NCBI GenBank assembly: GCA_045614825.1
Contig: JAZLDO010000040.1
Location: forward strand, 3,815-67,814
DNA from: Candidatus Aphodosoma sp.
GTDB taxonomy: Bacteria; Bacteroidota; Bacteroidia; Bacteroidales; Paludibacteraceae
Direction of reading: 5' to 3'
DNA length: 64,000 nt
How positions within the stretch are numbered: position 1 is the first letter of the stretch; each line of letters starts with the position of its first letter. Shown in pieces: positions 20,918 through 23,900 of the stretch. A program made the position numbers and the translations under genes. The notes beneath the pieces were generated by a model. It was not told the origin of the DNA. It did no database searches and was given only the letters and a program-made list of their open reading frames with translations.

Positions 20918-23900
20918 TTAATTAACCACAAATTTTCCAATATAAACGTCTCCTGTTCCACTCACAATTCTAACCAAATAAACCCCTTGAACATTCAATC
21001 TATCTAATGCTATTGGATATTCTGTTGGATAAACACTTAACACAACATTGCCTTGAGCCCCTATCACCTCTAACATCAATCCTCTCATCTCCTCAACAGT
21101 CCATGATTTATTCACGTATGTTATTTCTCCAATTTTTATCGGATTTGGCGCAATAACTAATGGCAATGCATAAACATTATCAAAACCTGTCTCATATTCG
21201 AGCGTGAGATTGACAATTGAGTCGCACGATGTGCCTTGTGTCATAAATGTTTCTGTATAGAAACCAGACTTAGTCAATGTGCGCTCGCCAAATTCGAAGA
21301 ATGAACCCTCTTCGATAGTAACGACTGTATCTACTACAACCGTTGGCACAAATTCAACAAACACTTCCACAATCGAATCGCAGCCTTCAATAGTAGATGT
21401 GGCACGCGACAAGAGAGTATCAGCTTTTATGCCAAACACATTAAATCCATATCCCACATACTCATATCCCTCACAAACATAATCGTCAAATCGGCTACGA
21501 GATGGCTCTGTGACACTCAAATGCAAGGTGATAATAGAATCGCAACCCAAAATATTTACCAACGAATCAACATAAACACCAGCCTCACTACGCTCCTCTC
21601 CACCAAAATAGTAGGTCGAACCTTGACATATTGTTGCCTCTAAGTCTGTTTTTTCAGGTATTACCCACAAATCCATCACCTCGACAGAGTCGCAACCATA
21701 TTGATTACGATAAAGTTTTTCGTATCTGCCAGCTTTGGTCAACGTCATGCCTTCCCACTCAAGAATAGTACCTTCACAAATAGTATCGCCATGTTCAAAA
21801 TATTTAGGATGCACCACAAGATTTAATGTTCGGAACTCGCAATACGAAACTGTATCCACATAAATACCTGTAGCTGTAATCTCTTTACCCGCAAATTCAT
21901 ATACCTCTCCTTCACAAATTGTGTCGTTGATGATTTCGCGCTTAGCTTGAACCACAAGATAGAGTCGCACAATCGAATCGCAACCACAAGACGAAATTTG
22001 TGGCTCACTCAAATATGTGCCCGACTCAGTGATATTATAGCCGGCAAATGCACCTTTGTTATATACATCACCAGGACAAATAGTATCGTTGAGATAGAAT
22101 GTACCAGAAGGATCAACAGTGAGATTCAAGACTTTCATCGTATCACACTCGCCTGGCACTTGCGATTCGATGAGTTGCTCGATACGATTCAATCCAAATT
22201 TCAACTTCTCTGTATCTATATCAAATCCATGACCTCTATAACGATTGCCCCAACATACATGGTCATTGTAAACTACCTCATTTGCACTATGACAAACTAT
22301 TTTAATGTCGTCAACCTTGATAGATTCAGAATAGCTATTGTCGCGCAACGAACGAGCCTTAAATTCTATCATGATGGTTTTGCCTGCGTATGCCGACAAG
22401 TCATATTCAACATCAGTCCATATGTTGTTTTTAACTGCATACAATACTGTATCAGAGAATGTGGCACCAGCATCGTCACTAATTAGTACTGCAAGGTATT
22501 CATCATCACGAATAGTTGTTTCGTATCTAAACGTCAATTTATATACGTCGCTATCGACAAACAACAACGGAGTGTGCAACACGGCATAACCATGAGCCAA
22601 AGAGGTGTTGAGCATAGCTGTGCGGTTGCCATTGAAGTCCTCTTTGACAGCCCAATCACGTACCGCCTCATCTAAAGTTGATGCGAGAGTCCAACACTCT
22701 GGGATATTGTCACCAGACTCTTCGAAGTTTTCGCGGAATGGTAGATTCACCACATCGCAATGCGTACGGAATGACAAGGTTGTCCAACTTGAACTATCGC
22801 CCGCTTGAGTCAACAATCCACGTACACGTGCATCGTATTGTGTAGAATTTTTCAAACCTACGAACGACACACTTTCTACACCAACTATTGTATCGCGCAC
22901 AACACTGCCATTAATCAACAACTGAACCCCATAACTATCTGCCAAACCATCGCCAGTCCAGCTCAAATCTGCAGTCGTAGAAGAGAGATAATCAACTGCA
23001 AAATTTTCGGGTTTTGCCAACAATACCTCTTTCACTTCAAACTCGTCGATAGTCAAAAGATATGTTGTAGAGTTGTTACACCACCATGGAGTAAATATCC
23101 AAACGCCTAATTCATAAACTCCTGTCTCGGTTGGAGTAAATGTAGCATCGTAATATTCATATGCTTGAGTGACTTGGTGATAATCTAACGTATCAAACTC
23201 ACCACCACGACGACGGGCAACAAAACCAACTCGCGAATCTTCTAACAACTCGCGTTGACGTGATTTCACACTCAATTCATAACGTTTGCCTGCAACCAAA
23301 TGGAATGGACGAGTCAAAGCAACATTTACGTCGTTTGTAGCTTTCAACACAATTGTTTCCAATGACGACAACATACTAATCTGACCTGCTGCCCTACCTC
23401 CCTTAGTGACTATCCAGCAAGGATCTAAATCAGAATATTCGAAATTGTCTATATAAGGTTGTGTTTTGGTTACGGTTATTATATCATCACAATAGGTTGT
23501 TAATTCGGTCATTTGCCACAAAGAAAAGTCTTCGTCTGAACATTTAACTCTCACAAACACATATTGTTTAGCATTAGGTTTCAAGTCCTCCAAATATATC
23601 ATGTCGCCCGATGCAACATTCGAGATAAATGCCTCTTCAGGATTATAAGTCAAACTAACTCGATATTCAACAACCGACAAATTCTCAGCTGTAAGTTTAA
23701 TCGTTGCCGTAACATCTTGCACATCGACTACCTCTATAGATTCTACTGCTTTACAGTTATTTTTCCGTACAATGATATTATCTATCGAAATAGGTGGTGT
23801 GCCATTGAGATATTGGTCGTTGTGCCATGTAACTACAAAGTTGTAATTCATAGGTTCTTCTATGACAAATGTTTCAGTTTGATTATGCCAAATCGCTGTG

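Follow-up and report, generated by a model that had tools for sequence, protein, structure and literature searches.

GhpA, a grappling-hook protein of Aureispira sp. CCB-QB1 (PDB 9flp) that is exported by a type IX secretion system (T9SS), has a rigid stem built of Ig-like repeats in tandem, in which disulfides join nearby domains and every repeat shows glycan densities (bioRxiv 10.1101/2024.01.29.577165). Small Ig-like modules also form the tandem stalks of Rib-domain proteins (PDB 6s5x, 6s5y, 8yke), in which copy number sets stalk length, and cysteine-containing tandem repeats of the SprB (PF13573) and Ig_7 'CHU_C-associated' (PF19081) types are found in giant surface filaments of Bacteroidota, where they occur in gliding and T9SS type B cargo. 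T9SS cargo, including the S-layer proteins of Tannerella, is an established target of O-glycosylation. The O-glycosylation sequon of Bacteroidota is D(S/T)(A/I/L/V/M/T) (PMC8550257). Here we describe a further cysteine-containing repeat of about 51 residues, found in a 64,000-nt stretch of contig JAZLDO010000040.1 (hereafter the window) from a 2.5-Mb, 84% complete metagenome-assembled genome (MAG) of Candidatus Aphodosoma (Bacteroidales; Paludibacteraceae), an uncultured bacterium of the gut. The repeat is carried by four genes, all on the minus strand, as are all features given below: G1 (20918-32137) and G2 (32379-42716), which encode paralogous putative secreted giants of 3739 and 3445 aa, and M1 (44473-47781) and M2 (47774-51133), which encode proteins of 1102 and 1119 aa. 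We consider it likely that the arrays form disulfide-stapled, probably glycosylated, rod-like stalks or spacers, which in the giants adjoin the anchor.

The units were mapped in the open reading frames and translations of the four genes through a C-[DE]-[ST] motif together with the preceding C-x-G motif, yielding an alignment of 18 units of 47-60 aa (A1). The G1 array (21185-22285; aa 3285-3651) is composed of seven units, r1 (22106-22285), r2 (21941-22105), r3 (21800-21940), r4 (21653-21799), r5 (21503-21652), r6 (21341-21502) and r7 (21185-21340), with profile E-values of 3e-20 to 4e-15. The G2 array (32649-33755; aa 2988-3356) is likewise composed of seven, r1 (33576-33755), r2 (33414-33575), r3 (33264-33413), r4 (33114-33263), r5 (32964-33113), r6 (32802-32963) and r7 (32649-32801), with E-values of 6e-22 to 2e-11. 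Two units each are present in M1 (45238-45585; aa 733-848), namely r1 (45406-45585, E = 2e-19) and r2 (45238-45405, E = 3e-13), and in M2 (48596-48940; aa 732-846), namely r1 (48761-48940, E = 1e-18) and r2 (48596-48760, E = 4e-17). A first-pass annotation of this DNA had counted the same seven, seven, two and two copies, and our units lie within ~25 nt of where it had placed them. The A1 consensus, DTICEG..Y.F.G...T..G.Y.....S..GCDS.V.L.L.V, is the same as the pattern that it had written down; in A1 the second cysteine is invariant, and one glycine and the aspartate after the second cysteine are conserved to at least 90%. In a six-frame search of the genome, the A1 profile recovers the units at E = 6e-22 to 1e-11, excluding a chance origin of the repeat.

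Six of the seven G1 units find their closest match in the equally numbered G2 unit, so that the earlier statement that copy n of one giant matches copy n of the other stands except for r5. Furthermore, nine of nine G2 orthologues, found with a 309-aa single query in other Aphodosoma and Paludibacteraceae MAGs from animal guts (71-76% identical), keep exactly seven units, and the units are 25-50% identical to one another. Because copy order is largely conserved, the number seven is kept in all nine orthologues and the units have diverged to this extent, the array is old and stable and not the product of recent expansion, as had been proposed. Elsewhere in the class, eight consecutive units of another genome (G118:C2:1427784-1429001) all receive one and the same profile score and recur at exactly 153 nt; these near-identical copies show that recent expansion happens in some lineages, unlike the old array of the window.

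The units fall outside the curated families of Pfam-A (2025) and NCBIfam release 20 (2026), which were scanned together with PDB sequences. Specifically, no model of either library matches the arrays of the four proteins at E ≤ 1, including SprB (PF13573), PKD, HYR, Flg_new (the Listeria-Bacteroides repeat), Ig_7 (PF19081) and delta-60 (TIGR02608), in line with the earlier exclusion of the first four of these. In 12 multi-repeat relatives, no curated model falls on the repeat units, and only sorting domains and one SprB repeat are recognized; the hits of curated models to the arrays of relatives are summed and spurious, with zero significant stretches. The SprB and Ig_7 repeats, which resemble the present one in containing cysteines, differ from it in period and motif and match no unit of the 12 relatives scanned, and one family member (P0129) has a SprB repeat and a CHU_C tail besides the present repeat. 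A literature search found no description of the repeat. Five relatives (P0057, P0010, P0075, P0097 and P0066) give recurrent weak summed hits to positions 41-88 of PilM (PF07419), which reach E = 7e-23 without any single significant stretch and may reflect a short common motif or a remote single-copy relative.

The family to which the window units belong is large. A profile hidden Markov model of the 18 units matches 27,187 representatives of 50%-identity clusters when the limit is E ≤ 1e-3, and 6,980 of them when it is E ≤ 1e-30, with up to 83 units in one protein of 5,020 aa; the family statistics given below rest on the top 150 of these proteins (5,060 units). The period has its mode at 51 aa, the arrays cover a median of 64% of the protein, and the family consensus is I-C-x-G..Y.[FW].G...T..G.Y.DT[LF]....G-C-D-S-[IV]..L.L.V.P. 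Numbered by unit column, conservation is 86% for C10, 92% for G26, 85% for Y28, 94% for C38, 97% for D39 and 95% for S40. The cysteine pair is therefore conserved in homologues, as the first-pass annotation had expected, and D39 and S40 are more conserved than the cysteines. Conservation is confined to the core, the turns, the cysteine pair and the sequon, and no conserved surface patch is seen in the family.

Almost every complete protein among the top 150 has the C-terminus of T9SS cargo. A sorting tail, of type A or of the CHU_C type B, closes 135 of them, and at least nine of the other 15 stop inside the array. These tails were counted with a local iterative profile that drifted from type A to type B, as checked with Pfam, and that misses the C-terminal sorting domains (CTDs) of the G1 and G2 giants; the profile serves this tally only. 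A Pfam scan of the 12 multi-repeat relatives recognizes PF18962 in four and PF13585 in six. Taxonomically, the repeat is present in 24 of 24 sampled genomes of the genus, with 19-141 profile matches each (about one per unit; genomes of 1.5-2.7 Mb), and matches occur in 10 of 16 other families of the same order. It was detected in 27 of 300 sampled high-quality genomes of the phylum, concentrated in few families, and the other genomes searched gave no match.

To model the unit, we used AlphaFold2 on three consecutive units (G2 r3-r5; 82-row alignment of the window and related loci) and on one unit alone (G2 r3; 88 rows). The two models, with predicted local distance difference test (pLDDT) scores of 87.9 and 89.2, respectively, agree on an all-beta unit of five strands (residues 2-9, 14-16, 19-21, 25-32 and 38-48), and strand 5 of one unit is predicted to lead through only two residues into strand 1 of the next. 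The first cysteine is predicted to lie in the β1-β2 turn (C-x-G) and the second in the β4-β5 loop (G-C-D-S). In a comparison with the PDB, the best fold match of the three-unit model is the GhpA neck (9flp_A; E = 2e-6, probability 1.0, TMq 0.24), followed by tandems of Rib domains (probability 0.96-0.97). A Foldseek search of the PDB with the single unit gave no significant match: the best hit is an unrelated GTPase (E = 0.12), 9flp_A is matched at E = 0.64 and TMq 0.35, Rib domains reach TMq 0.49, and Ig-like domains do not exceed TMq 0.5. Filing the unit under Ig, Rib or Big was rejected on account of these insignificant matches. The predicted unit resembles a shortened Ig-like module and is without a solved homologue. 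The three-unit model also matches, at E = 1e-12 and 26% identity, the BFVD entry A0A8D9FS04, which has 1423 aa and is named 'putative signaling protein', its source being given as 'uncultured marine phage'. This protein probably belongs to the family; its contig carries a viral label and may be mis-binned.

The comparison with GhpA therefore has two sides. Both are T9SS cargo of the same phylum with long tandem all-beta arrays, which in GhpA form a straight stem. The GhpA repeats, however, are Ig-like and ~70 aa long, whereas the present unit has 51 aa and five strands and matches in fold only when three units are taken together. Profiles A1 and A4, run against all PDB chains, match none of them, and even at E ≤ 10 they bring up no GhpA fragment. 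In addition, GhpA is heptameric, whereas the present repeat is known from sequence and monomer models. The Rib domains share the layout of small Ig-like tandem stalk modules, but they are ~80 aa long, lack the cysteine pair, belong to sortase-anchored proteins of Gram-positive bacteria, and show no sequence or Pfam match to the repeat.

The pairing of the two cysteines was addressed by covariation. The first-pass annotation had proposed one disulfide closing each module, so that every unit would be an independent domain with its own C10-C38 bond. This proposal accords with a count of two cysteines per unit in 79% of family units, with their regular 28-residue spacing, and with the confident AlphaFold2 model of a single unit on its own. 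The covariation, however, couples C10 of unit n to C38 of unit n+1. In neighbouring units, C10(n) and C38(n+1) are both present in 3842 cases and both absent in 75, with 3 and 29 discordant cases ([[3842, 3], [29, 75]]; odds ratio 3312, p = 3e-130), whereas association is nearly nil for the reverse neighbour pair and absent for the same-unit pair. Both conserved cysteines are found in 90% of units and no unit lacks both, with same-unit co-loss in 0 of 4,198. The cross-unit co-losses come from 29 distinct cluster representatives; the residues that replace the cysteines vary, and the flanking motifs are intact. Consistent with these counts, mean-field direct coupling analysis (DCA) of 4,290 unique neighbour pairs puts 10-38' at the top: it scores 7.06 (z = 22), the runner-up 3.1, and the same-unit pair 10-38 -0.45 and -0.30. 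Further couplings outline the β4-β5 hairpin (27-45, 29-43, 31-41), a β1 strand running parallel alongside β5 (6-45, 9-48), and the junction between units (49-36', 49-34', 12-39').

The ends of the arrays tell the same story. C38 is present in 79% of array-first units and 97% of internal units, and C10 is present in 90% of array-last units and 97% of internal units, as expected if the first cysteine pairs with the following unit; terminal units thus lack exactly the cysteine that a cross-unit bond would leave partnerless. In the window, the first cysteine is replaced by glutamate in the terminal unit of G1 (r7), in which the second cysteine and D-S-I are kept, and by alanine in that of G2 (r7). 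The last unit lacks C10 in five of five giants of the genome, and in one giant on contig C178 an internal pair is affected, unit 4 lacking C10 and unit 5 lacking C38. The predicted topology points in the same direction: the short loops would force the strands to alternate, placing C10 at the far end and C38 at the near end of a unit. With the two cysteines at opposite ends, a bond to the next unit would be natural and a bond within the unit geometrically awkward. On this evidence, a disulfide within each module is very improbable, and the most likely staple at each junction is a disulfide C10(n)-C38(n+1), the chemistry being read from covariation. As the median separation of the two cysteines (79 aa) exceeds the period, successive disulfide loops would overlap like a ladder.

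Several points weigh against this ladder. The 29 neighbouring pairs that lack C10(n) yet retain C38(n+1), together with the odd number of cysteines (15) in the G1 array region, mean that some cysteines are free or paired otherwise. A candidate N-terminal cap cysteine is present in all four proteins (G1 Cys3282, G2 Cys2982, M1 Cys725 and M2 Cys724), 49-54 aa upstream of the second cysteine of the first unit, but the upstream cysteine and C38 of the first unit show no association in the top-150 arrays (p = 0.39). The units of one protein share ancestry, so that event counts overstate independence, and the literature search found no experimental work on any family member. At the other end of the medium-sized proteins, the segments after the arrays (M1 aa 849-1102, 44473-45237; M2 aa 847-1119, 47774-48595) begin with a strand-1-like stretch ending in a cysteine (M1 Cys860, M2 Cys855); a second cysteine (M1 Cys930, M2 Cys941) stands ~70-85 aa further on, followed in each by an L.L.V-like strand. 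The repeat profile does not detect these segments (E about 1), which may be a third, expanded unit supplying ladder partners.

Covariation is, moreover, blind to the difference between bonds within one chain and bonds between staggered chains. The same cysteines could then link a staggered, parallel homo-oligomer into a covalent fibre or tube, an arrangement that would extend the heptameric GhpA stem, the neck of which is the best fold match of three units. We regard such interchain pairing as improbable to a high degree. The AlphaFold2 monomer is confident and its topology sets C10(n) beside the 34-39 loop of unit n+1 of the same chain, the couplings 49-36' and 12-39' support this same-chain placement, and the disulfides reported for GhpA are intramolecular (bioRxiv 10.1101/2024.01.29.577165). 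Two-unit arrays, as in M1 and M2, and the position-specific divergence of the units in the giants also fit register-shifted self-association poorly.

The tripeptide after the second cysteine is the most conserved of the unit and fits the Bacteroidota O-glycosylation sequon. Specifically, among 4,996 family units 93.5% have a sequon at columns 39-41, as do 17 of the 18 units of the window, and it is kept in 259 of the 269 units that have lost C38. Further sequon hot spots are at columns 30-32 (39% of units) and at columns 7-9 (8% of family units), the latter being frequent in the window units as D-T-I just ahead of the first cysteine. Per 100 aa, the arrays contain 3.5-5.2 sequons and the remaining parts of these proteins 0.46-0.71. 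The sequon denotes a modification motif and no protein family, and no glycoproteomic data were found on any member of the repeat family. Judged from these sequence patterns, the serine of D-S-(I/V/T) is probably O-glycosylated in the periplasm before export.

The same residues could, on the other hand, be purely structural. D39 and S40 exceed even the cysteines in conservation, and in strand 5 the phase of S40 is that of residues 42, 44, 46 and 48, which face the core, so that its exposure is not assured. Junctions rigidified by Ca2+ are common in bacterial Ig-like stalks, and the D-S pair might likewise stiffen the junction, for instance through an Asx turn or as a Ca2+ site, with no glycosylation. 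A structural or metal-binding role in place of glycosylation is a serious but less probable alternative. The third position is I, V, T, L, A or M in 93.5% of units, as the sequon demands; the two additional hot spots point to selection for sequons as such; and GhpA has glycans on every repeat.

In the mechanism that we propose, modules of ~51 aa with five strands would stack head to tail, strand 5 of one running into strand 1 of the next, and a disulfide C10(n)-C38(n+1) at each junction would produce the overlapping ladder. The serine of D-S-(I/V/T) would be glycosylated in the periplasm ahead of export by the T9SS, and in the giants, once the CTD was cleaved off and the protein attached to the surface, the array would lie next to the outer membrane. 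The array would act as a stiff spacer with an estimated rise, from strand length, of 3-4 nm per unit and ~25 nm for seven units, and it would hold the 3,000-aa body of fn3 and choice-of-anchor-J domains away from the outer membrane. From the repeat pattern, the predicted strands, the cysteine covariation and the conserved sequon we infer disulfide chemistry, glycosylation, rigidity and a spacer function of the arrays, and the stalk role suggested at first pass fits the predicted structure. In many relatives the repeat itself would be the bulk of the filament.

A binding role has to be considered besides that of a spacer, with which it is compatible. The modules might be adhesin-like or lectin-like units whose array length tunes avidity: tandem Ig-like repeats of other adhesins bind ligands at times, the surface residues of the present repeat vary strongly between units (25-50% identical), and many relatives consist largely of the repeat. 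The conserved positions, however, are those of the core, the turns, the cysteine pair and the sequon and form no surface patch, other domains that could bind ligands (choice-of-anchor J/MAM, fn3 and CBM-like) fill more than 3,000 aa of the giants, and a coat of glycans, probable as it is, would hide the surface. Ligand binding is thus an unlikely function of the modules, and a stalk or spacer remains the favoured one. We further lean towards the view that the arrays represent a distinct structural class of stalk, with 51-residue mini-domains without a solved homologue, an inter-module disulfide ladder and one O-glycan per junction, and that they are among the largest repeat families absent from curated libraries; in an extreme version of this view, the same cysteines would cross-link several chains into a covalent fibre.

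The domain layout of the giants is compatible with a stalk near the anchor. G1, analysed through its open reading frame, its translation and NCBIfam and Pfam scans of the C-terminal 560 aa, has a putative signal peptide, fn3 and choice-of-anchor-J/MAM-like modules, the array of seven units and a CTD of T9SS type A, in this order. Its last choice-of-anchor J/MAM-like domain (22298-22576; NF038128, 30.7 bits, cut-off 30; weak PF00629/PF20773) lies directly N-terminal to the array, and its CTD is at 20921-21154 (TIGR04183, 24.7 bits, cut-off 23). In G2, known from its open reading frame and translation, the corresponding domains are at 33777-34040 (NF038128, 39.8 bits) and 32388-32618 (TIGR04183, 32.2 bits, same cut-off), and a Pfam scan recognizes fn3 and MAM, with Por_Secre_tail below threshold (19.1 bits, cut-off 27). 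The tail of M1 scores 16.3 bits with TIGR04183, under the cut-off, and that of M2, a protein likewise read from its open reading frame and translation, has no TIGR04183 match and is CTD-like by the local profile only; of the T9SS tails assigned to all four proteins at first pass, those of G1 and G2 are confirmed, that of M1 is a sub-threshold candidate, and that of M2 is a candidate of the local profile. Similarly, a position directly upstream of the sorting domain describes the giants, whose last unit is followed by 88-89 aa, but not M1 and M2, in which ~250-270 aa follow, including the CTD-like tail of M1, nor the relatives, with a median of 251 aa. The N-termini of all four proteins are hydrophobic and then continue with Ala-Gln, as read by eye in the translations.

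Between M1 and G2 lies a gene for a 547-aa protein (42802-44445) with a C-terminal OmpA-like peptidoglycan-binding domain (PF00691, 83.6 bits). It matches the PorE model partially, through the OmpA-like domain only (86 bits, cut-off 600), and its N-terminal 440 aa have no family match in Pfam or NCBIfam; from its context alone, it may participate in anchoring. A 165-aa cysteine-rich protein encoded 3' of G1 (20319-20816) has no Pfam or NCBIfam match. In the genome as a whole, a profile search finds the repeat in 14 proteins on four contigs. Contigs C34, C178 and C168 contain two more loci with giant and medium proteins, the giants having 2873-3516 aa and 4-7 units and the medium proteins 1025-1081 aa and two units each, and a separate protein of 1272 aa has at least 12 units.

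Giant T9SS-secreted proteins dominate the surface of many gut and environmental Bacteroidota, and large parts of them are unannotated. The module described here accounts for a visible part of what Aphodosoma genomes encode and occurs in more than 27,000 clusters overall, and thousands of proteins would gain an annotation from a curated model. For the window, the cysteine model is corrected, and the seven-unit array is likely to be the anchor-proximal stalk of two paralogous giants. If the proposed mechanism is true, a ladder with a glycan at each junction would be a simple design rule for a stiff extracellular spacer, it would extend the cryo-EM picture of the single case GhpA, and it would raise the question of how long, oxidised and glycosylated rods traverse the T9SS translocon.

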